32,000 nucleotides of DNA, taken from NCBI GenBank assembly GCA_963718585.1, contig OY970357.1, positions 840,001 to 872,000 of the forward strand, read 5' to 3'. Shown in pieces: positions 604 to 29,345 of this stretch. Source of the stretch: Candidatus Saccharimonadota bacterium. GTDB taxonomy: Bacteria; Patescibacteriota; Patescibacteriia; 2-12-FULL-60-25. The stretch's first letter is position 1; each line of letters starts with the position of its first letter. The position numbers and the translations under genes were made by a program. The notes beneath the pieces are model-generated. The model saw only the letters and a list, made by a program, of their open reading frames with translations, was not told the DNA's origin and made no database searches.

Positions 604-1053
604 TCATAACTCCTCTTTCCTCACCACCTTCCCATCTGCATCGAAGAAAAAGCGCCTGGAGACGGTCCCGCCGGCAAGCACGGCCGGTAACCATAACGGA
701 TCATCGTCCCACATGGCCGCATACGGAACAGCTTCCAACGGATACCACTGGGGACGCATCTCCTCGGTCTCTTCCGGTTCCCCCTCAAGCCCGCGTGCGA
801 CGAAGACCGTACACCGATTGTCCCATTCCGGGGTCTCCAAAAAGACGAACTCGATGACCCCGCGCGACTCGAGACCCGTCGGCGTGGCGCCCACCTCCTC
901 CTGCGTCTCACGGACGCACGCAGCTTCCGGCGTCTCCCCATCCTCCAACTTGCCACCTGGGCCGTTCCATTTCCCAGCGCCAAGCCCGCGCTTCTTCATC
1001 GCGAGCAGGACACGGCCATCGACGATCGGATAACAGAGGGTGGTCTGTTTCAT
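604..1053 (-). CDS. Nudix hydrolase (MutT-like)
   Basis: Nudix box GGKLEDGETPEAACVRETQEEVG (GX5EX7REUXEEXGU). Start trimmed to MKQTTLCYPIV (ATG 1051-1053), which overlaps the upstream stop in an ATGA junction. Confidence 0.85.
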   Translation of the reverse strand: MKQTTLCYPIVDGRVLLAMKKRGLGAGKWNGPGGKLEDGETPEAACVRETQEEVGATPTGLESRGVIEFVFLETPEWDNRCTVFVARGLEGEPEETEEMRPQWYPLEAVPYAAMWDDDPLWLPAVLAGGTVSRRFFFDADGKVVRKEEL

Positions 1054-1613
1054 ACGTGTTCTTCGCCCAATGCCGCCTCCAGGATCTCCGGGACCTCGAG
1101 CGCGCCTTCGACATGCATCAGATGTCCGGACCGCGCCGGGACGATGAGCTTGACGCCGAGCTGTTTCGCGAGCCATTCCCCTTCCTCGAACGGAACGAGC
1201 GGATCGCGATGCGCATGCACGACCGCCCAGGATCGCGCCTTCGGCTTGATCGCAGAAAGATCCAAGGGGTGAGGGAACCAGTCATGATGGAATTGTCCCG
1301 CCTTTTTCAGGATCGTCGAAAACGGACGGCCGAAACCGGAGACCAATACGACCCGTGTGAGCGGTGGCCCTTCGTAGTTCGCAAGCGTCCACAGGATCGC
1401 CGCGCATCCGAGCGAATGTCCGATCAGCACGGTCTCCGGACGGCCAAGGGCGCGCCGGATGGTATCGACCCAGACCGTCCGCTTGGGCAGCGCCGGATCC
1501 GGCATCTTCAACGCTTCCGTGGTCCACCCACGCGATCCCAGCTCACGCCGAAGCCACGGGAACCAAGCGTTCTCCGGCCAACCTTCCCACCCATGCACGA
1601 GGATCGCATGCAT
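1050..1613 (-). CDS. alpha/beta serine hydrolase, YdeN/RBBP9-like
   Basis: 187 aa. ILVHGW...WFPWL N-terminus and nucleophile elbow GHSLG, typical of the Ser_hydrolase (YdeN) family. 4-bp ATGA overlap with the Nudix gene. Confidence 0.8.
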   Translation of the reverse strand: MHAILVHGWEGWPENAWFPWLRRELGSRGWTTEALKMPDPALPKRTVWVDTIRRALGRPETVLIGHSLGCAAILWTLANYEGPPLTRVVLVSGFGRPFSTILKKAGQFHHDWFPHPLDLSAIKPKARSWAVVHAHRDPLVPFEEGEWLAKQLGVKLIVPARSGHLMHVEGALEVPEILEAALGEEHV

Positions 1614-1675
1614 GACGCCAGCGTAGCCGGAGGAACTCGAAAAAGAAATGCCCCGTACACGATGATCCAGCCGGG

Positions 1676-1749
1676 TGCGCGCGCAAGGACTCGAACCTTG
1701 GACCCCTTCGGTGTAAACGAAGTGCTCTAACCGACTGAGCTACGCGCGC
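1676..1749 (-). tRNA. tRNA-Val (anticodon UAC)
   Basis: Manual cloverleaf: GCGCGCG-TA-GCTC..GAGC-A-CTTCG-TTTACAC-CGAAG-GGGTC-CAAGG-TTCGAGT-CCTTG-CGCGCGC-A. CCA is not encoded. Confidence 0.85.
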
Positions 1750-2916: not shown

Positions 2917-3003
2917 TGGTGCGCAGGAGAGGACTCGAACCTCCACGGGATTGCTCCCGCCAGCACCTCAAGCTGGTGCGTATACCAATTCCGCCACCTG
3001 CGC
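2917..3003 (-). tRNA. tRNA-Leu (anticodon GAG), class II with long variable arm, CCA encoded
   Basis: Manual fold: GCGCAGG acceptor, anticodon stem CCAGC/GCTGG with loop TTGAGGT, variable arm CGGGAGCAATCCCG, T-arm GGAGG-TTCGAGT-CCTCT, 3' ACCA. Confidence 0.85.
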
Positions 3004-4511: not shown

Positions 4512-6110
4512 TTACGAGGCCTCTCCGGGCGGCGTGGCGTCCGGCACGATCGGAAGATGGAAACGGAACACGCTCCCCTTCCCCGGTCCGTCACTTTCGA
4601 CCTCGACCCCGCCACCGGCCGCATGGACGAGCCGCTTTACGACGTACAACCCCAACCCTGTCCCATCAAGTGCACGAGCGTGCGCGGTCCGACCACGATG
4701 GAACTTGGCGAACAATTCATGGATATCCGCGTCGGTCATCCCTGCGCCCGTATCACGGACCTCGCAGACGAGCCGACCATCATCGACCAGGCAGGTCACA
4801 GAGACCCCTCCGTCATCCGTATATTTGATCGCGTTATCAACGAGATTGAACAGCGCGTTCCGGAACGCCTGACGGTCGATCCGGACCGACGCCGAGACCG
4901 ACGCCTCTGCCCGCGCCCCAAGTTCCAGATGCTTCCCATTCGCGAACATCTGCATCTCCTGGACCACGGTCGCCAGCTCAGCACGGACGTCCGTCGGTTG
5001 GGGACGGGTCGTGTATTGTCCGGTCTCGACGCGGGACATGTCCAAAAAAGTCTCTGCCAGGTCGAGCAACCGCGTTGCCTGATCCTGGATCTGGGCCGTC
5101 ATCTTTACGGCTTGTTCTGGTAACGCTCCAAAATCGCCTGACGAAAGCATGGACGCTCCAGAACGGATGGCCCCGAGCGGAGTTCGTAATTGATGCGAGA
5201 CCATATCCACGAAATCACTTTCTGCCTCTCCCAACTGACGCAGGCGATGATTCGCCTCTTCGAGCAACAGACGCTTCATCCGCTCTCCGCGCGCGGAACG
5301 GATCGCGATGAACCCGAACGTTCCCAGGGCGACGGATCCCAGGAGCGAGACCGTGAACTCCCGAGGATCATGCGCCACGAGCAACAAGATGATCGCGAAG
5401 GTGAGGAGGAAGACGAAGAATGCTTCCAGCGCACCGACGGATACATCCAAAAGGGACGCTCGCACGAAGGCCGCAAGGGAGATGATGCAGAACAAGCTCG
5501 TCAGGGCCGGGAGAAGCATGTCCCCCGGGATCGGGATCGTAATGACCTGAAGCGCAGCGGCCGTGAGGTATAAAGTCAGGATCACGATCCCGTACGCGGC
5601 ACGGCGGCGTTCAATGAGACGTGCATCGCCCGAAAAGACCGGATAGAGCTCGATGGCCGCAATGAGGAACGCGATGACATCAAGGAGAAAGAGGACACCG
5701 GCGGCGGCCATCAATACCGCTGCAGTATCGAAGGACCATCCGGCAAAGGCCACCAACGCGTGCGATGAGAGCCCGAAGAATGCGATCAGGCCGACGACAT
5801 ACGCCAAGATGACCGATCCGACGGTCCGGCGGTGGGAGATCCGCAGGGCGACGTGCAACGCGTAGGCCGGCGCCATGGCGACCGTGAACTCAAAGAGAAG
5901 CTTCCAGAGGAAGACCTGCGTCGGCGAGACAGCCGGGAATGACCGGATGAACCAGTCCGCCGCGGTCCAGAGGGACAACGAAAGCGCGATGAGCCCGAAC
6001 AACGTCCCACCGATGGACCGCCGACTCCGCGACCACGCGAGGAATCCGAGGAGCAGGGCCGCTGTGGCGGACCCGACAAGAAGGACGAGATCGAGAGGGA
6101 GGAGAGGCAT
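4512..6110 (-). CDS. sensor histidine kinase with polytopic membrane N-terminus
   Basis: About 8 hydrophobic segments. HisKA H-box SHQLRTPL. HATPase_c motifs NLVDNAIKYT, DTGAGM, GTGLGLYVVKRLV. No response regulator in the window. Confidence 0.85.
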   Translation of the reverse strand: MPLLPLDLVLLVGSATAALLLGFLAWSRSRRSIGGTLFGLIALSLSLWTAADWFIRSFPAVSPTQVFLWKLLFEFTVAMAPAYALHVALRISHRRTVGSVILAYVVGLIAFFGLSSHALVAFAGWSFDTAAVLMAAAGVLFLLDVIAFLIAAIELYPVFSGDARLIERRRAAYGIVILTLYLTAAALQVITIPIPGDMLLPALTSLFCIISLAAFVRASLLDVSVGALEAFFVFLLTFAIILLLVAHDPREFTVSLLGSVALGTFGFIAIRSARGERMKRLLLEEANHRLRQLGEAESDFVDMVSHQLRTPLGAIRSGASMLSSGDFGALPEQAVKMTAQIQDQATRLLDLAETFLDMSRVETGQYTTRPQPTDVRAELATVVQEMQMFANGKHLELGARAEASVSASVRIDRQAFRNALFNLVDNAIKYTDDGGVSVTCLVDDGRLVCEVRDTGAGMTDADIHELFAKFHRGRTAHARALDGTGLGLYVVKRLVHAAGGGVEVESDGPGKGSVFRFHLPIVPDATPPGEAS

Positions 6111-6215: not shown

Positions 6216-7982
6216 CTACATCTCGTCCGGCACGGGGATCCCGAGGAGTTCCGATCCATGGACAAGGGCGTGTCGCGCGAGCGCCGCGAGCGCGAGTCGT
6301 GCGGCGCGAACATCCGTCGGCGCATCGAGGACTGGCACATCGCGGTAGAATGCATTCACCTCCTGGGCGAGCGACAAGCACCATTGTGCCAAGGCGCTTG
6401 GCTTGGTCTCCACCGCGGCGCGGCGCACGACATCCGGAAATGCCGCGATCCGCAGGGCGAGCGCCCGTTCCGTGTCATGGACCAACCCATCGGCATCGAT
6501 CGTGTGATCGAACCCATCCGTCCACCCGGCCTTTTTCAGGATGCTATTGAGGCGCGTTGCCGCGTAGAGCACGTACGGACCCGTATCGCCGTCGAACGAG
6601 AGCGCCTTTTGGATGTCAAAGACGATCCGCTTGTTCGGATCTTGCTTGAGCATCGCGAATTTCATCCCCGCGATCGCGAGACACCACGAGATATGTGCGA
6701 CCTTTCCTTCGCTCCAATCCGGATGACGCTCGATCGTAGACGCCCGCGAGGCGGCCATGACCGCATCGCGAAACGTGAAGAATGTGACGATGTTCCCCTT
6801 CCGACTCGACATCGCTCCCTCCGGAAGGGTGACGAGCTCATAGCCAAGGAATCCGAAGGATTGCGCATACCCCATGCGCTTCAGCGCTTCGGCGAGTTGT
6901 CGGAAATTGAGCGCCTGCCGCATATCGACAAGGACGACGCTCTGCGTGAAATCCGGATACTCCTGCGCCTTGAGCTCGGCGAGCGCAAGGTCTTTGGCGG
7001 CATAAAGGAGTGATCCATCAGATTTCCGCAAAAGCATGACACCGAGCTTCTGTTCCTCCATGTCGATGATCAACGCACCCTGACTTTTGATCGCGATCTT
7101 CTTTTCCTCCAACTCCTGCAACAGTTCATGTGCGCGATCCACGCATTCAGAATCAAAATATTGTCGTTCGATCCGGACGCCAAGCTCGTCAAAGACGCCA
7201 TTGATCTCATCCATGCACCAACGTTTCGTCTCCCGCCACAAGGCCTCCCATGCCGGTTCGTGCTTTTCCAGTGCCGCGTGAACGAATGAAACATTTTCCT
7301 GCAGCGCGTCCTCTTCCTCAAGCGCACGTGTCGCCTGCGTATACACGTCACCAAGATACCGCGCGTTCCGGTCCTCTCCCGGGACGGCGTTCAAAAGCGC
7401 ATCGACATCGTCTTTCGCGAAAACGCGGACGTCGTACCCATGATCCGTCACCAGTTTCCAAAGGCACTTGGCCACATGCGTCCCGATGTCATTGATGTAG
7501 CTCACTGGGATCACGGTCGCACCCGCCCGTCGGAGCAGCGGGACGAGTGATGCCCCAAGAATGAGGTTTCGCAGATGCCCGACGTGGATCTCCTTATGCG
7601 TGTTCGGATTCGCGTATTCGAAAAGGGTCTTTTGACCTGCGAGCGCGTCCGTTTGTCCGAAGGCTTCCCCTTCTCGCGCGACCTCGGCCAACAAACGCGG
7701 GACGAGTGCCCCGACATGGATCCGAAAATTCAAATACGGACCGACCGGCGTCGCCGCCGCGATCGTGACATCCGTCCCTTCGAGTTTCTGCGCCAAGGCC
7801 ACTGCGACATCCGCCGGATTCGCTCCCATGACCTTCCCGAGCGCGAAACAACCGAAGGCAAGATCCCCATGCTCCGAAGATGGCGGAACCACAAGATCCT
7901 TTGGATCAACGGTCTGCTCCGCAACTTCGGAGAGGCGACGGGCGATATGGGCCCGGATGACGTCCCAGGTGGACTGCGTCAT
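6216..7982 (-). CDS. argS: arginine--tRNA ligase
   Basis: 588 aa. HIGH-type motif HVGHLRN, MSSRKG (KMSKS-like), C-terminal DALR anticodon-binding-like region ending in M. Confidence 0.95.
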   Translation of the reverse strand: MTQSTWDVIRAHIARRLSEVAEQTVDPKDLVVPPSSEHGDLAFGCFALGKVMGANPADVAVALAQKLEGTDVTIAAATPVGPYLNFRIHVGALVPRLLAEVAREGEAFGQTDALAGQKTLFEYANPNTHKEIHVGHLRNLILGASLVPLLRRAGATVIPVSYINDIGTHVAKCLWKLVTDHGYDVRVFAKDDVDALLNAVPGEDRNARYLGDVYTQATRALEEEDALQENVSFVHAALEKHEPAWEALWRETKRWCMDEINGVFDELGVRIERQYFDSECVDRAHELLQELEEKKIAIKSQGALIIDMEEQKLGVMLLRKSDGSLLYAAKDLALAELKAQEYPDFTQSVVLVDMRQALNFRQLAEALKRMGYAQSFGFLGYELVTLPEGAMSSRKGNIVTFFTFRDAVMAASRASTIERHPDWSEGKVAHISWCLAIAGMKFAMLKQDPNKRIVFDIQKALSFDGDTGPYVLYAATRLNSILKKAGWTDGFDHTIDADGLVHDTERALALRIAAFPDVVRRAAVETKPSALAQWCLSLAQEVNAFYRDVPVLDAPTDVRAARLALAALARHALVHGSELLGIPVPDEM

Positions 7983-9187
7983 ACAAGCTTCACGAAATGC
8001 CGCTTCCCTTTTTGGATGAGATCCCCCTTTGCGACGTCCGCCGACGGATCTTTGAGGACCTCCTCATTCACTCTCACGCCACCCTGTTCGATCTGCCGCC
8101 GCGCATCGGATTTCGATGAGACGAGTTTTGCATCCACCAATGCATCCACGAGCGTCATGCCCTTCGTCGCCTTCAATTCCGGCACCTCCTCCGGCGTTTC
8201 ATGTGCCTTATGCACCCGATCGAAATGCTCTGCGGCCTTCGATGCCGCCTTACCGCCGGTAAGCAGGGAAACGATCTCTTCCGCGAGCCGACGCTTGTAA
8301 CCGACCGGGTTTTCCCCGTCCGTGATCGCCGCGCGGATATCCGCGATCTCACCATCCGGCACGTCCGTGCACAATTCAAACCCCGGGATGATCATCCCGT
8401 CCTTCCAGCTCATGACCTTCCCATACATGTCCTCCGGCGTATCGAGCAATGACACCATATTGCCCTCGCTCTTCCCCATCTTGGTCCCCGTCGGATCCGT
8501 CAGAAGTTTCGTCGTCAACACGAATTTCTCCTTGTTCTTCATCTCTCGCAAGAGCGCGCGTCCGGCCAACATGTTGAAGGTCTGGTCATTCCCGCCAACT
8601 TCAAGATCCACATCCATCACGACCGAGTCATATCCCTGCATGAGCGGGTACAAGAACTCGTGAAGATACACGGGCTTCCCTTCTTTCATGCGACGTTCGA
8701 ACATGTCGCGTTCCGCCATCTGTTGGACCGTGAAGTGCGAGGCAAGTTCGACGACGTCGCCGAAGGACATCTTCGCGAGCCACGCGCTGTTGAATTTCAA
8801 CGAGGCCGCATTCGGTCCGTCGAAGGACAGGAAACGCGACGCCTGCTTCTTATACAACTTACAGTTCGCAAGCACATCATCACGAGTGAGTTGTTTGCGG
8901 ACCGCCGACTTATCCGTCGGGTCGCCGATCATGGCCGTGAAGTCGCCGATGAGGAGAAAGACCTCGTGTCCGAGGCGTTGCAACTCCGCGAGTTTCCGCA
9001 ACCAGATGACATGGCCGAGGTGCAGGGTCGGGCCCGTCGGATCCACACCCGTGTATACACGGATCCGTTGTCCGCTCTTTAAGAGCTCGTCTAATTTTTC
9101 CCGCGTCGGATATACATTCTCGACCGCCCGGGTGAGGAACTGCGCGATCGCCTTCGGATCTGTCGATGCCTTGGATTTCGTGGCCAT
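7979..9187 (-). CDS. tyrS: tyrosine--tRNA ligase
   Basis: 402 aa. GVDPTGPTLHLGH, GDFTAMIGDPTDK, KMGKSEGN, C-terminal S4-like RRQIEQGGVRVN. ATGA overlap with argS. Confidence 0.93.
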   Translation of the reverse strand: MATKSKASTDPKAIAQFLTRAVENVYPTREKLDELLKSGQRIRVYTGVDPTGPTLHLGHVIWLRKLAELQRLGHEVFLLIGDFTAMIGDPTDKSAVRKQLTRDDVLANCKLYKKQASRFLSFDGPNAASLKFNSAWLAKMSFGDVVELASHFTVQQMAERDMFERRMKEGKPVYLHEFLYPLMQGYDSVVMDVDLEVGGNDQTFNMLAGRALLREMKNKEKFVLTTKLLTDPTGTKMGKSEGNMVSLLDTPEDMYGKVMSWKDGMIIPGFELCTDVPDGEIADIRAAITDGENPVGYKRRLAEEIVSLLTGGKAASKAAEHFDRVHKAHETPEEVPELKATKGMTLVDALVDAKLVSSKSDARRQIEQGGVRVNEEVLKDPSADVAKGDLIQKGKRHFVKLV

Positions 9188-9259: not shown

Positions 9260-12200
9260 TCACTTCAATCTTCCGACCCGCTCCTTCAACGCCGCGAGCT
9301 TGGCCTCGGCCTCGCCGTACTTCGCCTCCATGTCCTCGCGGACCTGACGCGGGGCCTTGGCGAGAAAATCGGGGTTCTTCAATTTGGCCGTGAGCGACGC
9401 GATATATGATTCCGTCGCATTCACCTCTTTTTCCAGTTTTGCCTTCTCCTTTTCAACGTCGATGGCTCCGACGAGGTTCAAGGCGACCATGCCACGCGAG
9501 GCCGGCAACGAGACCCAATCCGCCGGAACGGCGTCGACGAACTGCAGCGATGACGCGCGTATCAGTGCCGCCACGATATCAGCCTGATCCTTCAGGTCAT
9601 CCGCACCGGTCACGACCGCGTCGATCTCAACGGATGGTTCGATCCCGTTCTCCGCACGGAGGCGGCGCAACACGGTCACGACCTCACGAAGCGCTTCGAA
9701 CGTTCCATAGGCGTTCAATGCATCCGGGTCAGTAGAAATCTCAGACTGTGGCCACTTCGCGGTGATGAGCACTCCCTCAAACCCGGCCGTCTTCCAGATA
9801 TGTTCGGTCACGAACGGCATGAACGGATGCCACAACGCCAAGATCGTCTGCAAGATGTGACGAAGGATCGCCTCTTTCCCCTTTTCGATCTTCGCGATCT
9901 CCAGATACCAGTCCGCAAGATCACCCCAGGTGAAATCACGCAGCTCTTCCCCGGCCTGCGAGAATTCGTATCCTTCGAGCTTCTTGGTGACGGATCGGAC
10001 GACATCATTTAACCGCGTCAAGATCCACCGATCCGCCAGCGTCTTCGGTGTTGCGTCCGTCTCCGTCGCATCCCCGATCGTCATGAGGATGAACCGCGAG
10101 ATATTCCAGAGCTTGTTCACGAAGTTCCGTCCGCTCTCGATCTTCTCCGTGTAGTACTTCGAATCATTCCCTGGCGATACGCCGAGGATGAGACTCACGC
10201 GCAATGCATCGCAGCCGTACTCGTCAATGACCTCGATCGGATCGATCCCATTCCCCGATGACTTGGAGAATTTCTTTCCGTCTTTGTCACGCAGGATCCC
10301 GTGGATATACGCATCTTTGAATGGGATCTCGCCCAACGCATACGTCCCCATGAGGATCATACGCATGAGCCAGAGATACAGGATCTCATACCCCATCTGC
10401 ATCCAGCTTGTGGGATAGAAGGTCTCGAGATCCGTGTTCACGCGACCGTCATTGCCATACGCGCGCAACAGATAGCCGCCGTTCTTCGGATACGACTCGA
10501 GCCACTTCGCATCCGTGCCGTACGCGCCCATCGTACTGATGACATCGCCATGCGAAACGACGATCACCGTCTTGCCCATATGCGACTTCAGCAGATCATC
10601 CATGAACGCATCCGCTCGCGACTTCAACCCCGCATAGGACTCGACGGTGTCCATGGTCTTTCCCTCGATCCATTGCGCATACGGTCCGCGCGCGGCATTG
10701 AATTCCGCTTCGCTTCCGCCGCTGTATTTCCCAAGTCCGATCTCGTGCAACCTATCGTCAAACGAAAGTGGGAGTCCCAATTTCTCCGAAAGGATCTTCG
10801 CCGTTTCCTTTGCGCGTCGCACCGGCGACGAGATGATCTCGACCGGTCCCTCCTTTTTCAGATGCTCCGCAACCTCGGCGACCTGCTGGATCCCCACCTC
10901 GGTCAGTCCATTCTTCGGATTGTCGATCGCATCATCGATGAACCCCTCGGCGTTGGAATGCGCCTGCCCATGCCGCACGAAGAGCACGCGCGTAAGTGGC
11001 CAACCGAGCGTGGAGAATGGCCATGACCCGGAACTGAACCAGGTATCGAGCGTATCCGGGTCCTGTTCCCATCCTTCGCCCGGTGAGGTCTCCTGTACCC
11101 GGATGTCATCGCCCTTGTACCAGGCCGGGATCCGATGCCCCCACCACAGCTGACGCGACAGACACCAATCGCGGAGATTCTCCACGCGGTCGAGATAGAG
11201 TTTCGTGAACCGGTCCGGCGTGATCATGACCTTTTGTGGCGGATCGCCGCCGAGTCCCGTGGTCACAGCCTCGCGCATGAGGTCGCGCAGGCTCTTCCCG
11301 CGGTTCGGGATCATCTTCTTCATGTCGAGCCACCACTGCGTGAGCGGGATCGCTTCGATGATGTCGCCATACCGATCTGATGTCCCGACGTTCTGCGAGA
11401 TCTCCTCTTCTTTCTCCAACAAACCCTGATCGCGCAGCCACTTCACGAATTTCTCGCGTGCTTCCTCGACAGACCGTCCCGCGTATTCCGTACCGGCCTC
11501 TGTCGTCATCTTTCCATCTGTACCGATGACCGGGATGATACCTATCGGATCACCGGCCGCCTTCTGCTTTTCATACATCGCGAAATCCACGGCGCTGTGT
11601 GCCGGTGTCACGCCGAGCGCACCCGTACCGAAGGTCGGATCGACCTCTTCGTCCGCGATGACCTTGATCTCAAGCGGCTTTGCCGCACCGACATCGACCG
11701 TAAAGGTCTTACCGATGTAGTCCTTATATCGCGCATCTTTCGGATGCACGGCCACAGCCGTATCCCCAAGCTTGGTCTCAGGCCGCGTCGTTGCGATCGT
11801 GATGGGAAAATCTTTGGAGTATTTGAACGTATAGAGCTTGGACGGACGCTCCATATATACGATCTCATCGTCGGAGCAGGTAGACTGCCCTTTCACCGAC
11901 CAATTCACGACGCGGTATCCGCGATAGATGAGACCGTCCTCGTACATGCGTGTGAAGAGCGTGTTCACGGTCCGGCTCCGCGGCTCATCAAAGGTGTATG
12001 CCAACCGCGTCCAATCACAACTCGTCCCCACCTTGCGGATCTGCGAGAGGATCGTCGCCTTGCTCTGTTCCGCGAACGCGCGGATCTCTTCCAAGAGCTT
12101 TTCGCGACCGAGTTCCTGTCGGGGATTGGTCATTCCCTTTGCCATCAATAGTTTCTCGACCTTGGCCTGCGTCGCGATCGCCGCGTGATCCGTCCCCGGC

Positions 12201-12439
12201 ACGAGCAGCGTTTTGCGTCCACGCAACCGCTGGAACCGGACCATCGTATCCATGATCGCGTTTTCGAACGCGTGTCCCAAATGCAGGACACCGGTCACGT
12301 TCGGTGGCGGCATCATGACGCAGAACGGCTCCCCCTCTTCCGAAGGCTGGAAAGCGCCGGAGGCTTCCCATGCGCGATAGATATCATCTTCTACAGAGGA
12401 AGCGTCGTACGCTTTTGGCAGGTCATCAAAACGGGGCAT
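9260..12439 (-). CDS. valS: valine--tRNA ligase with an embedded histidine-phosphatase domain
   Basis: PPPNVTGVLHLGH (HIGH), CP1 editing motif TTRPETKLGDTAVAVHP, WFSSGSWPFSTLGWP, FYPTS, KFSKSSGN (KMSKS), C-terminal coiled coil. Start placed at MPRFDDLPKAYD (ATG 12437-12439). The ORF-track start at 12466 lies inside the predicted promoter spacer. Confidence 0.93.
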   Translation of the reverse strand: MPRFDDLPKAYDASSVEDDIYRAWEASGAFQPSEEGEPFCVMMPPPNVTGVLHLGHAFENAIMDTMVRFQRLRGRKTLLVPGTDHAAIATQAKVEKLLMAKGMTNPRQELGREKLLEEIRAFAEQSKATILSQIRKVGTSCDWTRLAYTFDEPRSRTVNTLFTRMYEDGLIYRGYRVVNWSVKGQSTCSDDEIVYMERPSKLYTFKYSKDFPITIATTRPETKLGDTAVAVHPKDARYKDYIGKTFTVDVGAAKPLEIKVIADEEVDPTFGTGALGVTPAHSAVDFAMYEKQKAAGDPIGIIPVIGTDGKMTTEAGTEYAGRSVEEAREKFVKWLRDQGLLEKEEEISQNVGTSDRYGDIIEAIPLTQWWLDMKKMIPNRGKSLRDLMREAVTTGLGGDPPQKVMITPDRFTKLYLDRVENLRDWCLSRQLWWGHRIPAWYKGDDIRVQETSPGEGWEQDPDTLDTWFSSGSWPFSTLGWPLTRVLFVRHGQAHSNAEGFIDDAIDNPKNGLTEVGIQQVAEVAEHLKKEGPVEIISSPVRRAKETAKILSEKLGLPLSFDDRLHEIGLGKYSGGSEAEFNAARGPYAQWIEGKTMDTVESYAGLKSRADAFMDDLLKSHMGKTVIVVSHGDVISTMGAYGTDAKWLESYPKNGGYLLRAYGNDGRVNTDLETFYPTSWMQMGYEILYLWLMRMILMGTYALGEIPFKDAYIHGILRDKDGKKFSKSSGNGIDPIEVIDEYGCDALRVSLILGVSPGNDSKYYTEKIESGRNFVNKLWNISRFILMTIGDATETDATPKTLADRWILTRLNDVVRSVTKKLEGYEFSQAGEELRDFTWGDLADWYLEIAKIEKGKEAILRHILQTILALWHPFMPFVTEHIWKTAGFEGVLITAKWPQSEISTDPDALNAYGTFEALREVVTVLRRLRAENGIEPSVEIDAVVTGADDLKDQADIVAALIRASSLQFVDAVPADWVSLPASRGMVALNLVGAIDVEKEKAKLEKEVNATESYIASLTAKLKNPDFLAKAPRQVREDMEAKYGEAEAKLAALKERVGRLK
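10427..10996 (-). other. in-frame histidine phosphatase (phosphoglycerate-mutase-like, His_Phos_1-type) domain inserted in the ValRS catalytic core
   Basis: ORF residues ~491-680: LTRVLFVRHGQAHSNAEG...SSPVRRAKETA...LHEIGLGKYSG...TVIVVSHGDVISTM. Carries the RHGxxxxN and SHG signature motifs. Lies between GWP and VNTDLETFYPTS, which are only ~8-10 residues apart in E. coli ValRS. Confidence 0.8.
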
Positions 12440-12450
12440 AAAGTACGTTG

Positions 12451-12479
12451 ATAGTACGTTGCGCATAGAATTGAGGCAA
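12451..12479 (-). promoter_or_regulatory. valS promoter candidate (TTGCCT-17-TACTAT), very short leader
   Basis: Minus strand: TTGCCT (12474-12479), 17-nt spacer, TACTAT (12451-12456), then 11 nt to the ATG at 12439. No SD. Confidence 0.35.
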
Positions 12480-12559: not shown

Positions 12560-12588
12560 TTGACCTGTCGGGCATTCAAGGCTAAGCT
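12560..12588 (+). promoter_or_regulatory. promoter candidate (TTGACC-17-TAAGCT)
   Basis: TTGACC 12560-12565, 17-nt spacer, TAAGCT 12583-12588. 28 nt upstream of the ATG at 12617. Confidence 0.4.
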
Positions 12589-12616
12589 CACACATCCGAT
12601 TTTTGATGTCGGGACC

Positions 12617-13765
12617 ATGGCACTTACCGTCGAACAACAGACGACCGAGCTCATCACCCGCGCGAAGCGGATCCTCGTCGCCACGAAAGAACATGCCTCC
12701 GTCGACGCCCTTGCGGCCGTCGTCGCGCTTTTGACGTATCTCCGAAAACTCGACAAACAGGCAGACGGCGTGGTTCCGGGCTTCACTCCTGACCAGCTCC
12801 CAAAGTTTCTCGGAACAGCGGACGGCATCCGACCGCTCGCAGGTGCCATGCGTGCGTTCGAGCTCGCCCTCGATGTGACCAAGACCCCGATGGAAGAGAT
12901 CACGTATGATGTCCGCAATGGAAAACTCCTCGTCCATATCGTTCCGGAGACCGGCGAGTGGACGCCCGCAGACGTGAGCTTCCGCCATGGCGAAGATCGA
13001 TATGACCTCGTCATCGCCCTCGACTGCCCGGACCGCATCTCGCTCGGTCCCCTCTTTCGTGATCACGCGGATTTCCTATACCGCACACCCGTGATCAACA
13101 TCGACCGCGACCCGGGCAACGAACATTGGGGTCAGGTGAACCTTGTGGACCTCACGGCCGTGTCGACGAGCGAGATCTTGTACGGACTTTTCCAGCGATG
13201 GGATAAACATCAGATCGACGAATCGATCGCGACAGCGCTCCTCGCAGGTATGATCGCGAAGACCCAGTCGTTCCGGACGCAAAGCGTGACGCCGAAGACG
13301 CTTCAACATGCATCGGCACTCGTCGCCATGGGTGCCAAGCGCGAAGAGATCGTCCACGGACTCTGGCGCACGCGCTCGGTCGCCACGCTCCGACTCTGGG
13401 GGAAGGCGCTTTCGCGTCTTGAACAAGACCGTGAGCTCGGGATCGTTTGGGCCACGCTTTCCCGTCAGGATTTTGTGGACACGGGCGCGCACGAGAATGC
13501 GCTTGAAGGCGTCGTGGACGAACTCCTTTCCTACGCACCGGAAGCGAAGGTCGTGGTCTTGGTGCATGAGCAGGAAGGCAACGGTGGCGCATGCGTCACG
13601 ATCCACGCGGCCTCCTCACGAAATGCACAGGAGCTCGGGCGACCGTTCGGCGCCACGGGTTCACGTGAACGCGTGGACTTCTGTCTCACGCCCGGCCAAC
13701 CGCTCATCGAGGGCACGCAGATGGTCATCGACCGCCTCCGCCAGACCATCCAGGCGACGAAATAA
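12617..13765 (+). CDS. DHH/DHHA1 family phosphoesterase-like protein (NrnA-like) with degenerate catalytic motifs
   Basis: NrnA-like length and layout. The DHH motif position reads INIDRDPGNEHWG (DRD, not DHH). N-terminal DxD and C-terminal GGGH motifs are not evident. Start trimmed to MALTVEQQ. Confidence 0.7.
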   Translation: MALTVEQQTTELITRAKRILVATKEHASVDALAAVVALLTYLRKLDKQADGVVPGFTPDQLPKFLGTADGIRPLAGAMRAFELALDVTKTPMEEITYDVRNGKLLVHIVPETGEWTPADVSFRHGEDRYDLVIALDCPDRISLGPLFRDHADFLYRTPVINIDRDPGNEHWGQVNLVDLTAVSTSEILYGLFQRWDKHQIDESIATALLAGMIAKTQSFRTQSVTPKTLQHASALVAMGAKREEIVHGLWRTRSVATLRLWGKALSRLEQDRELGIVWATLSRQDFVDTGAHENALEGVVDELLSYAPEAKVVVLVHEQEGNGGACVTIHAASSRNAQELGRPFGATGSRERVDFCLTPGQPLIEGTQMVIDRLRQTIQATK

Positions 13766-15310: not shown

Positions 15311-15370
15311 CGCGATCGCAAAACATCCCGTGTGTGCGGGATGTTTTGAATGGTGGGCGCGAGAGGAGTC
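15311..15370. repeat. 60-bp perfect direct repeat, copy 2 (overlaps the 3' end of the intact tRNA-Val-GAC and its terminator)
   Basis: Identical to 15133-15192; the copies start 178 bp apart. Confidence 0.9.
15320..15347 (-). terminator. terminator hairpin after tRNA-Val(GAC)
   Basis: AAAACATCCCG-tgtgtg-CGGGATGTTTT 11-bp stem with an A/U-rich base. A duplicate lies at 15142-15169. Confidence 0.6.
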
Positions 15371-15427
15371 GAACCTCTGACCTCCACAATGTCAATGTGG
15401 CGCTCTAACCAACTGAGCTACGCGCCC
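15351..15427 (-). tRNA. tRNA-Val (anticodon GAC), CCA encoded
   Basis: Manual cloverleaf: GGGCGCG-TA-GCTC..GAGC-G-CCACA-TTGACAT-TGTGG-AGGTC-AGAGG-TTCGACT-CCTCT-CGCGCCC-ACCA. Confidence 0.88.
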
Positions 15428-16005: not shown

Positions 16006-17510
<1,505 letters not shown>

Positions 17511-28304: not shown

Positions 28305-29345
28305 TCATGAATGAAGCGGCGGGAGCGGCGTGAGGACCGCGTCTGAACGCGGAAGCAGGTAGAGGCGATCCTTCCCCTTTTCCTTTGCGACTCGTTTCGC
28401 CCGCTCTGCGAGACGGATGATGTTCATGAGGAGCGCATGCGCTCCCGGAAGGACGACGACGCCGATGGAAGCCGTGACCCGCAGGGGTGGCTCCACGTTC
28501 GCGAAGAGCGAATGACGCACGAGGCGAACGTCATCGCAGATCCGTTCTGCCATGCCGCAAGCTTCGAACTCGCTCACCTCCTCGGCAAGGATGATGAATT
28601 CATCTCCGCCAAGGCGGACGATCGTATCCCCTTTGCGGATGGATCCCCGAAGGGTCTTTGCCGCGGCAACGAGGACATTGTCTCCGACGCTGAAACCCAG
28701 CTCGTCGTTCACGAGTTTGAAACGATCCAGGTCCACGAAGAGGGCGGCGAGTGAACCACCAGACGCCTTGACCCGCTCGAATGCGCCCGGAAGGTACGCA
28801 TCGAGAAACCAGCGGTTCGGAAGTCCGGTCAGTGGATCGTGATGCGCCATGTGCTTGAGTTCAGCCTCATGCGTCAGCTGTTCCGTCAGATTCCGACAGG
28901 TCCCGATGATCCGGACGACCACGTCGTCCACGATCACCGGCCGCAAGTTCAGGAGGACCGGGACCACCCCATCCGTCGTTTGGATGAATGCCTGGACGTC
29001 GGACAAACGCCCCTGCGCACTGAAGCGATCGAGAAGGCCATACCCATCAGGACGACCTTCACTGTTCGTGAACGCATCCATGATGCGCCTCCCCACGGCG
29101 ACCTCTGCCGGGACGTTCAAGAGGCCACGAGCCGCCTCGTTCATGAAGGTGGTCCGCATTCGGCAATCAGTGACGAATACGGCGTCCGTGATGCCGTTCA
29201 AGGCACGTTCGTACAGCCGGCACTGCTCCTCTAGCCAGGCTTGGGTCGCGGGTCCGTCGGATGATGATGGCGGCGTTGCCGGAAACCGCTCTCCACAGGG
29301 GTCCGGCAGATGCGACTGCGTCAAGAATTTCGGTCGATCGCTCAC
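28305..29345 (-). CDS. PAS-domain diguanylate cyclase (GGDEF)
   Basis: PAS-like ALNGITDAVFVTDCRMRTTFMNEAA. HHDPLTGLPNR, RLGGDEFIIL (intact GGDEF). GTG start. Confidence 0.88.
   Translation of the reverse strand: MSDRPKFLTQSHLPDPCGERFPATPPSSSDGPATQAWLEEQCRLYERALNGITDAVFVTDCRMRTTFMNEAARGLLNVPAEVAVGRRIMDAFTNSEGRPDGYGLLDRFSAQGRLSDVQAFIQTTDGVVPVLLNLRPVIVDDVVVRIIGTCRNLTEQLTHEAELKHMAHHDPLTGLPNRWFLDAYLPGAFERVKASGGSLAALFVDLDRFKLVNDELGFSVGDNVLVAAAKTLRGSIRKGDTIVRLGGDEFIILAEEVSEFEACGMAERICDDVRLVRHSLFANVEPPLRVTASIGVVVLPGAHALLMNIIRLAERAKRVAKEKGKDRLYLLPRSDAVLTPLPPLHS

Follow-up and report, generated by a model that had tools for sequence, protein, structure and literature searches.

The valS gene in the 32-kb stretch of DNA analysed here (contig OY970357.1; the whole stretch is called the window) encodes a complete valyl-tRNA synthetase (ValRS), a class Ia aminoacyl-tRNA synthetase (aaRS), into which a domain of the histidine phosphatase superfamily is inserted in frame. 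Considered together with the relatives of the inserted domain, this architecture probably represents one polypeptide with two enzymes, namely the ValRS and a catalytically competent histidine phosphatase that would be coupled to class Ia aminoacylation; we estimate the probability of this reading at about 60%. The gene and its parts, numbered from the first residue of the open reading frame (ORF), are the following.

9260..12466, minus strand: valS ORF, 1068 aa, coordinates with stop codon, matching the NCBIfam valS equivalogs
10997..12466, minus strand: N-terminal ValRS part (aa 1-490), matching residues 2-470 of Thermus thermophilus ValRS (1GAX)
12272..12283, minus strand: HLGH (aa 62-65), a HIGH-type motif
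10442..10996, minus strand: histidine phosphatase insert (aa 491-675, 185 aa), PhoE/CobC/PspA-like, Pfam family PF00300
10970..10972, minus strand: codon of His499 (H of RHG), the predicted phospho-accepting nucleophile, from sequence and conservation
10550..10552, minus strand: codon of His639 (H of SHG), the second catalytic histidine, from sequence and conservation
9263..10441, minus strand: C-terminal ValRS part (aa 676-1068), matching residues 474-855 of 1GAX, with the Pfam domains Anticodon_1 and Val_tRNA-synt_C
10259..10273, minus strand: KFSKS (aa 732-736), a KMSKS-type motif

A histidine phosphatase domain inside ValRS

The preliminary description of this sequence had proposed a ValRS with an in-frame histidine phosphatase domain, and profile searches bore this out. 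The product exceeded the cutoffs of the NCBIfam valS equivalogs NF004349 (899 bits; cutoff, 704) and TIGR00422 (824 bits; cutoff, 612), both matches falling into two stretches with a break at profile position ~460-471, and Pfam displayed a tRNA-synt_1 domain split by His_Phos_1 (PF00300; E-value of 3.4e-35), followed by Anticodon_1 and Val_tRNA-synt_C. All motifs quoted in that description were found in the product, which reads DTLDTWFSSGSWPFSTLGWP (up to residue 490), then LTRVLFVRHGQAHSN, TVIVVSHGDVISTM and LRAYGNDGR (up to residue 675), and then VNTDLETFYPTSWMQMGYEILYLW and KFSKSSGN. The true start is probably M10 (position 12439), where the homologues begin (at MPRFDDLPKAYD), which would result in a protein of 1059 aa. 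The N-terminal ValRS part contained the first half of the Rossmann fold together with CP1 (the editing domain), CP2, a short CP3 devoid of cysteines, and the WFSSG helix up to GWP. In the C-terminal part, the FYPTS strand and the GYEILYLW motif were accompanied by KFSKS, by the domain that binds the anticodon, and by the C-terminal coiled coil. The residues H62, G64, H65, K732, S734, K735, and S736 were invariant across 89 ValRS sequences, carriers of the insert included, as were the editing-domain residues (TRPET and GTG). Structures were predicted from the alignments A4 and A5. The AlphaFold2 model of the full chain, based on the 89-sequence alignment, had a mean predicted local distance difference test (pLDDT) score of 91 and a predicted template modelling (pTM) score of 0.84, with both enzyme parts folded confidently, and its ValRS scaffold superimposed on 1GAX with a Foldseek template modelling (TM) score of 0.84 (normalised to 1GAX). 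T. thermophilus ValRS belongs to the same family and fold (E-value of 8e-171) and has the HIGH- and KMSKS-type motifs, CP1, the anticodon-binding domain, and the coiled coil in common with the window protein. It differs by the possession of the CP3 zinc knuckle cysteines, which are missing from the window ValRS, and by the direct passage from GWP470 to EDLKAFYP474, where the window protein has 185 additional residues that make up the phosphatase domain.

The limits of the insert were set between GWP490 and VNTD by alignment to insert-less relatives and to T. thermophilus ValRS, at a position equivalent to P470/E474 of 1GAX. Within the second half of the Rossmann fold, the insertion point is situated in a surface loop that leads from the helix ending at GWP490 to the FYPTS strand. 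Of the span given earlier (10427-10996), the end at 10996 was accurate, but the end at 10427 took in five native residues (VNTDL) on the C-side, the true limit being 10442. The remaining synthetase of 883 aa (874 aa from M10) agrees with the ~870 aa expected after removal of the insert. The distance to the KMSKS-type motif had been underestimated, as KFSKS is located 57 residues beyond the insert instead of ~45.

His_Phos_1 covered aa 494-650 with 121.9 bits, compared with a cutoff of 21.7 bits. The catalytic set of branch-1 histidine phosphatases was complete, as had been supposed before, comprising R498 and H499 (RHG), R551, E575, and H639 (SHG), and N505 was present too. Among ten carriers, the inserts of which were 34-75% identical, the active site was kept and R8, H9, G10, N15, R61, E85, H149, and G150 (domain numbering) were invariant. 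The five catalytic residues were all retained in 36 of 38 ValRS-embedded domains, in 55 of 56 domains embedded in isoleucyl-tRNA synthetase (IleRS), and in 184 of 193 free domains, and each of these 38, 56, and 193 domains had a histidine at the nucleophile position. In the full-length AlphaFold2 model, the pLDDT amounted to 90-98 over most of the domain, which adopted a confident alpha/beta fold of the phosphoglycerate mutase (PGM) type. From the sequence, we infer that the insert is an active phospho-histidine phosphatase.

The closest folds to the insert were all small-molecule phosphatases, namely PhoE, GpgP, PspA-type phosphoserine phosphatase, the riboflavin-pathway HFP, and CobC. PhoE (YhfR) of Geobacillus stearothermophilus (1EBB and 1H2E) was the best match in both sequence (1EBB; E-value of 3e-25) and fold (TM score of 0.80 for the insert modelled alone); the Foldseek E-value to GpgP was 4e-13. 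PhoE, PspA (4IJ5), GpgP (4PZ9), CobC (6E4B), and HFP (9MMH) have the same R-H-G/R/E/H set and size (~190-210 aa) as the insert. These PhoE-type relatives are free-standing, soluble metabolite phosphatases, whereas the domain of the window is internal to a synthetase. The insert scored below every curated NCBIfam equivalog cutoff tested (dPGM, CobC, PspA, GpmB, and SixA) and can therefore be assigned at superfamily level only. In particular, the best dPGM model (dPGM_arch) gave 97 bits versus a cutoff of 225 and the bacterial dPGM models 17-22 bits versus 305-366; the other scores were 83 versus 162.9 for CobC, 72 versus 350 for PspA, 55 versus 261 for GpmB, and 33 versus 74.5 for SixA. The motifs of dPGM are ERHYG and HGN, whereas the insert reads EIGLGKYSG from E575 onwards and SHGD. 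A role as a dPGM that supplies a missing glycolytic enzyme was ruled out by these scores and motifs. A CobC-like histidine phosphatase is likewise joined to a nucleic-acid enzyme in the RNase H/acid phosphatase of the Rv2228c type (NF005567). However, the latter is a C-terminal fusion with another partner enzyme, and its model gave 83 bits to the insert, far under the cutoff of 326.

An architecture that is odd a priori may result from a chimeric assembly, a frameshifted gene pair, an intein, or an intron, in which case the insert would be outside the mature ValRS. Apart from this oddity, nothing favoured such an origin. PF00300 was found inside ValRS in ten 90%-identity clusters, from four independent sources (NCBI, JGI, ENA, and Logan), and a degenerate DNA pattern of the junction (GWP-x-T-x-V-x-FVRHG) had matches in 17 GTDB species-representative genomes. 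The insert is hence not an artefact, as the same junction recurs across independent assemblies. The ORF was continuous, and the guanine-plus-cytosine (GC) content of the insert matched that of its surroundings. No Hint or intein domain was found by Pfam, and the junctions (P/LTRV and DGR/VNTD) lacked Cys, Ser, or Thr as well as HN, in accordance with the earlier exclusion of an intein. Rfam detected no intron or other RNA family within valS, and no convincing direct or inverted repeats resembling a target site flanked the junctions; a 10-nt repeat of 90% identity near both junctions, offset by 17 nt, was judged to be due to chance. Finally, the whole chain was folded confidently by AlphaFold2. 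The artefact, intein, and intron explanations are thus effectively refuted.

The 17 genomes with the junction were titled Uhrbacteria, Magasanikbacteria, or Patescibacteria, except for several third party annotation (TPA) metagenome-assembled genomes (MAGs; L002, L004, L009-L013, L016, and L017) bearing the title 'uncultured Gammaproteobacteria bacterium'. The ValRS sequences of these MAGs grouped with those of the Uhrbacteria and Magasanikbacteria carriers in a neighbour-joining tree, the title probably being a placeholder or an erroneous label. In the source databases, the carrier proteins were unnamed or simply called valine--tRNA ligase or histidine phosphatase family protein. A full-text literature search for ValRS, IleRS, or aaRS with a histidine phosphatase, including those from the candidate phyla radiation (CPR) or Patescibacteria, yielded no description of the architecture, in agreement with the statement in the preliminary description that no such ValRS was known.

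Embedded and free-standing relatives of the insert

A profile of the ten inserts was searched against 1.84 billion cluster representatives, of which the best 150 (50% clusters) were kept, so that the counts derived from them are lower bounds. Searches with the insert as sole query returned short free-standing proteins only and never fused synthetases, and were unfit for counting carriers. The composition of the best 150 representatives and the insertion sites were as follows.

IleRS with phosphatase: 47 (35 with one copy, 12 with two)
ValRS with phosphatase: 8 (5 with one copy, 2 with two, 1 with four)
Free-standing phosphatases: 95 (40 with a single domain, 54 with two domains, 1 with three)
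ValRS, site ~385 (window numbering): after the editing domain
ValRS, site ~455-465: inside the CP3 zinc knuckle (e.g., P0102)
ValRS, site 491: the site of the window protein
IleRS, CP3 knuckle: the dominant site
IleRS, loop after the WFESG helix: homologous to the site of the window protein
IleRS, loop ~65 residues past KMSKH

Phosphatase insertion was thus commoner in IleRS than in ValRS (47 versus 8). All long proteins among the best 150 were class Ia synthetases, and all 13 that were checked by NCBIfam were IleRS. About six insertion sites were distinguished, all of them variable surface loops, with one to four copies per protein, and most flanked the KMSKS region in sequence. Moreover, all fusions were internal, in or beside the catalytic body, and none was terminal. 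Examples of IleRS with one or two phosphatase domains are P0179, P0183, P0195, P0197, P0229, P0240, P0241, and P0261. Two to four domains occurred in the ValRS proteins P0234 (1329 aa), P0308 (1538 aa), and P0176 (1161 aa), in which some of the additional copies were devoid of the catalytic Glu or Arg. In the carrier ValRS of a Magasanikiibacteriota MAG (L008), the cap region of the insert was shortened and THAAT replaced SHGD; this copy may be a decaying or remodelled phosphatase. IleRS representatives that start with a phosphatase domain, and that might have been taken for split enzymes, are probably truncations; the one that was checked begins 84 nt from a contig end. Enzymatic domains nested in the catalytic body of class Ia synthetases have precedents, as the CP1 editing domain is of this kind and a GNAT domain is likewise nested in certain IleRS (NF040702). 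The window protein scored only 124 bits to the latter model (cutoff, 1999 bits), and the inserted chemistry would here be phosphate-ester hydrolysis via a phospho-histidine.

The history of the site-491 insertion was examined with distance-based trees, in which non-carriers were sampled near the window protein only. When the ValRS bodies were placed in a neighbour-joining tree, the clade of the window protein (P0001, P0002, and L014) and a second carrier clade (P0011 and L001) were nested separately among insert-less Uhrbacteria ValRS. Unlike the ValRS bodies in this tree, the inserts at site 491 were one another's nearest relatives. For example, the window protein and P0005 were 68% identical in the insert but only 60% in the body. 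In addition, P0005, P0007, and P0050 were 70-87% identical to the window ValRS at the termini and in the surroundings of the insert, compared with 34-47% in the catalytic core (aa ~300-390), a mosaic suggestive of recombination, at the shared syntenic locus, between valS alleles that had diverged. As far as these sequence comparisons go, the pattern fits an insertion at site 491 that arose once and afterwards either spread by recombination or was repeatedly lost in a precise manner. In the closest pair of carriers, the insert was as conserved as the body (75% versus 74%).

The nearest free proteins counted ~188 aa, did not exceed 38% identity to the insert, and were labelled Moranbacteria or Patescibacteria; a C-terminal YPxxG hairpin is common to this free-standing clade and the insert. 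Six free-standing relatives, each from a separate sequence cluster, were inspected in their genomic context (L018/L019, L022, L023/L024, L025, L026/L027, and L028/L029). The phosphatase gene was located downstream of argS in all six loci and upstream of ileS in all five whose contig reaches ileS, although four of the six proteins were only 29-54% identical to each other and the GC content of their four loci ranged from 36 to 56%. The gene order was argS, an ORF for a membrane protein of ~50 aa (motif RLPKKYR..WDEEL..VGS), the phosphatase gene, optionally 23S_rRNA_IVP and/or NUDIX, ileS, often NUDIX, and then recO. In L023, the genes were nearly abutting, with intergenic gaps of 2-4 nt. NUDIX genes hence flank ileS in these Patescibacteria relatives. 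Moreover, one IleRS (1149 aa; L028:8066-11515) carried a NUDIX domain inserted at aa 327-452, with a separate NUDIX gene immediately upstream. We infer that the insert was inherited and that it stems from this Patescibacteria-specific clade of free phosphatases encoded between argS and ileS. Three independent types of association, namely operon adjacency, insertion into IleRS, and insertion into ValRS, point to a functional tie between the phosphatase and the class Ia synthetases.

Several observations weigh against such a coupling. Firstly, the insert was missing from 110 of the 120 best ValRS matches, so that it must be dispensable for ValRS function in sister lineages. Secondly, at larger distances, the insert diverged faster than the body (34-49% versus 57-60% identity), with the active site remaining fixed. 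Thirdly, about six different loops harbour the insertion, with as many as four copies per protein, which speaks against a strict geometric coupling with the active site. This last point fits equally well with a passenger, i.e., an ordinary metabolic phosphatase encoded beside the aaRS genes that became lodged in permissive IleRS and ValRS loops without any mechanistic connection to aminoacylation, and that was kept for an unrelated activity of its own or for co-expression only. The absence of the insert from most sister ValRS and the nearness of its fold to that of metabolite phosphatases (GpgP, PhoE, phosphoserine phosphatase, riboflavin-pathway HFP, and CobC) speak for this possibility, as does the patchy distribution of PGM in some CPR lineages (PMC7304191). 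Furthermore, the NUDIX domain inserted in an IleRS and the existence of an NCBIfam model for IleRS with GNAT imply that these scaffolds accrete domains readily. A passenger would nevertheless be hard to reconcile with the persistence of the argS-phosphatase-ileS neighbourhood among such divergent free relatives and with the restriction of the fusion partners to IleRS and ValRS among the best 150 relatives. A fusion driven by mere proximity should also give terminal fusions, of which none was seen, and the domain is not a dPGM, given its scores and its EIGLGKYSG motif in place of ERHYG. A passenger origin is therefore considered unlikely.

The valS locus of the window

In the window, valS is surrounded by the following genes.

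12560..13765, plus strand: DHH-family gene, divergent from valS, a neighbour in carriers and non-carriers alike
7979..9187, minus strand: tyrS, the next gene downstream of valS, in the same orientation
6216..7982, minus strand: argS, with a 4-nt overlap with tyrS (7979..7982)
4512..6110, minus strand: HisKA/HATPase_c sensor kinase gene, directly downstream of argS, in the same orientation
604..1176, minus strand: NUDIX hydrolase gene, ~8 kb from valS
28305..29345, minus strand: PAS-GGDEF diguanylate cyclase gene
16006..17510, minus strand: 16S rRNA gene, complete, followed by tRNA-Val(GAC)
15351..15427, minus strand: tRNA-Val(GAC) gene
1674..1749: tRNA-Val (TAC) gene
2917..3003: tRNA-Leu gene

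The order valS-tyrS-argS was also encountered in L020, L021, and several carrier loci, and the synteny DHH-valS-tyrS-argS was common to carriers and insert-less relatives. The gene of the window is therefore the housekeeping valS, carriers and non-carriers occupying the same locus. The genes valS, tyrS, argS, and the kinase gene were all on one strand, with the 4-nt overlap between tyrS and argS, which suggests a single operon containing three class I synthetase genes. No 23S rRNA gene occurred within the 32-kb window, and the rRNA genes appear to be unlinked. The signalling genes, encoding the sensor kinase and the diguanylate cyclase, are notable for a small genome of the CPR type.

The kinase gene bears on the possibility that the embedded domain is a protein phosphatase. 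It could then act on the synthetase itself, for instance on a Ser in or near KMSKS that has been hit by HipA-like kinase toxins, or on a protein bearing phospho-histidine, for example the sensor kinase whose gene follows argS. The superfamily includes SixA and the C-terminal domain of MutT1, the latter having protein phosphatase activity on sensor kinases (PMC12407098). The insert displayed a weak similarity to SixA, most insertion sites flank the KMSKS region, and the HisKA/HATPase_c gene follows argS both in the window and in L021. However, the kinase gene was missing from this position in the insert-less L020 and in the carrier L016, so that the linkage is inconsistent and was rejected as a general feature. 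In addition, the SixA score was far under its cutoff, and kinase toxins were not evidenced in these genomes. Protein dephosphorylation is thus very improbable as the function of the insert.

Function of the embedded phosphatase

A mechanism that combines these data can be outlined as follows. The phosphatase would have been spliced at the DNA level into the loop between the GWP490 helix and the FYPTS strand, as one instance of a phosphatase clade that was apparently inserted repeatedly, in one to four copies, into loops of IleRS and ValRS that are prone to indels. In the predicted active site, His499 would attack a phosphomonoester or terminal phosphate held by Arg498, Arg551, and His639, and Glu575 would protonate the leaving group, after which the phospho-histidine intermediate would be hydrolysed. 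In this way, the phosphatase might take a phosphate off a nucleotide-type compound (AMP/NDP/p4A/PPi-like) that aminoacylation or editing releases as a product or by-product, and the NUDIX hydrolases encoded next to ileS may act alongside it. The nearness to the ATP and tRNA 3'-end site supposed in the preliminary description is a reading of distance along the sequence. By Rossmann topology, the insert loop comes just ahead of the N-terminal end of a strand that bears the GxD/E nucleotide-binding motif (GYE) at its C-terminal end, and may thus face away from the pocket, at the far edge of the sheet.

A nucleotide-type substrate originating from the synthetase reaction or from editing is a tentative leading guess by analogy, based on the recurrent NUDIX partner and on MutT1 as precedent for the pairing of a Nudix with an RHG phosphatase domain (PMC11784022). 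In mycobacterial MutT1, an RHG phosphatase is likewise covalently joined to a nucleotide-handling enzyme, and the partner is a Nudix domain, as found near or in Patescibacteria ileS. Yet, MutT1 is an end-to-end two-domain protein with a SixA-like phosphatase domain and no synthetase, and the window ValRS, unlike such bifunctional enzymes, had no Nudix domain according to Pfam. The NUDIX genes beside ileS in the relatives make a nucleotide-polyphosphate theme plausible. Ap4A has no terminal phosphate, and hence the histidine phosphatase itself cannot cleave it.

An alternative substrate, put forward in the preliminary description, is the tRNA itself. The phosphatase would then heal tRNA ends in cis and, before tRNA-Val is charged, clear its CCA end of a 3'-phosphate, a 2'-phosphate, or a (pyro)phosphate that nuclease damage or tRNA-phosphorylating toxins could have produced. 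The association of the domain is specific to tRNA-charging enzymes, and all insertions are internal, in or near the catalytic body. In addition, CP3 holds both the main site in IleRS and the second one in ValRS; it directly follows the CP2-3 linker lining the A76 pocket of the tRNA and is structurally variable among IleRS (PMC7191050, PMC7955072). By contrast, the closest relatives in sequence and fold are small-molecule phosphatases. The multiplicity of sites, one of them ~65 residues after KMSKS, and the presence of two to four copies give no indication of an exact reach to A76, and there is no obvious reason why end healing would be restricted to Ile and Val. To our knowledge, no branch-1 histidine phosphatase acts on RNA ends. 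Healing of tRNA ends is hence regarded as quite unlikely, somewhat more so than the passenger origin.

The aaRS are among the most studied enzymes, and a domain that they have acquired is usually a sign of new biology (e.g., editing or signalling). A conserved and apparently active phosphatase nested in ValRS, in IleRS of many more lineages, and present in free form between argS and ileS seems to have been undescribed. It resembles known kinds, on the one hand synthetases with nested catalytic domains (CP1 and IleRS-GNAT) and on the other hand histidine phosphatases joined to enzymes of nucleic acids or nucleotides (MutT1 and Rv2228c). However, phosphate-ester hydrolysis via a phospho-histidine has not been described as inserted chemistry for any aaRS. 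A broader, somewhat doubtful possibility is that Patescibacteria maintain a partnership between IleRS/ValRS, with argS linked in operons, and a dedicated histidine phosphatase, often together with a Nudix enzyme, which would add a phosphate-ester hydrolysis step to tRNA charging or quality control. If true, (pyro)phosphate might be stripped from damaged or toxin-modified CCA ends, or adenylate-derived nucleotides destroyed at their source, a step that is absent from textbook translation and that would be linked so tightly to charging that the phosphatase was repeatedly built into the core of the synthetase. Even if the domain were a passenger, the approximately six natural sites show which loops in class Ia synthetases can accommodate a folded domain of 185 aa, which is useful for engineering, and they exemplify how reduced genomes pack enzymes into essential proteins. 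If, on the other hand, the phosphatase is coupled to aminoacylation, it would represent a new step of translation, be it tRNA-end repair, by-product clearance, or regulation, in the CPR, a huge and poorly understood share of bacterial diversity.

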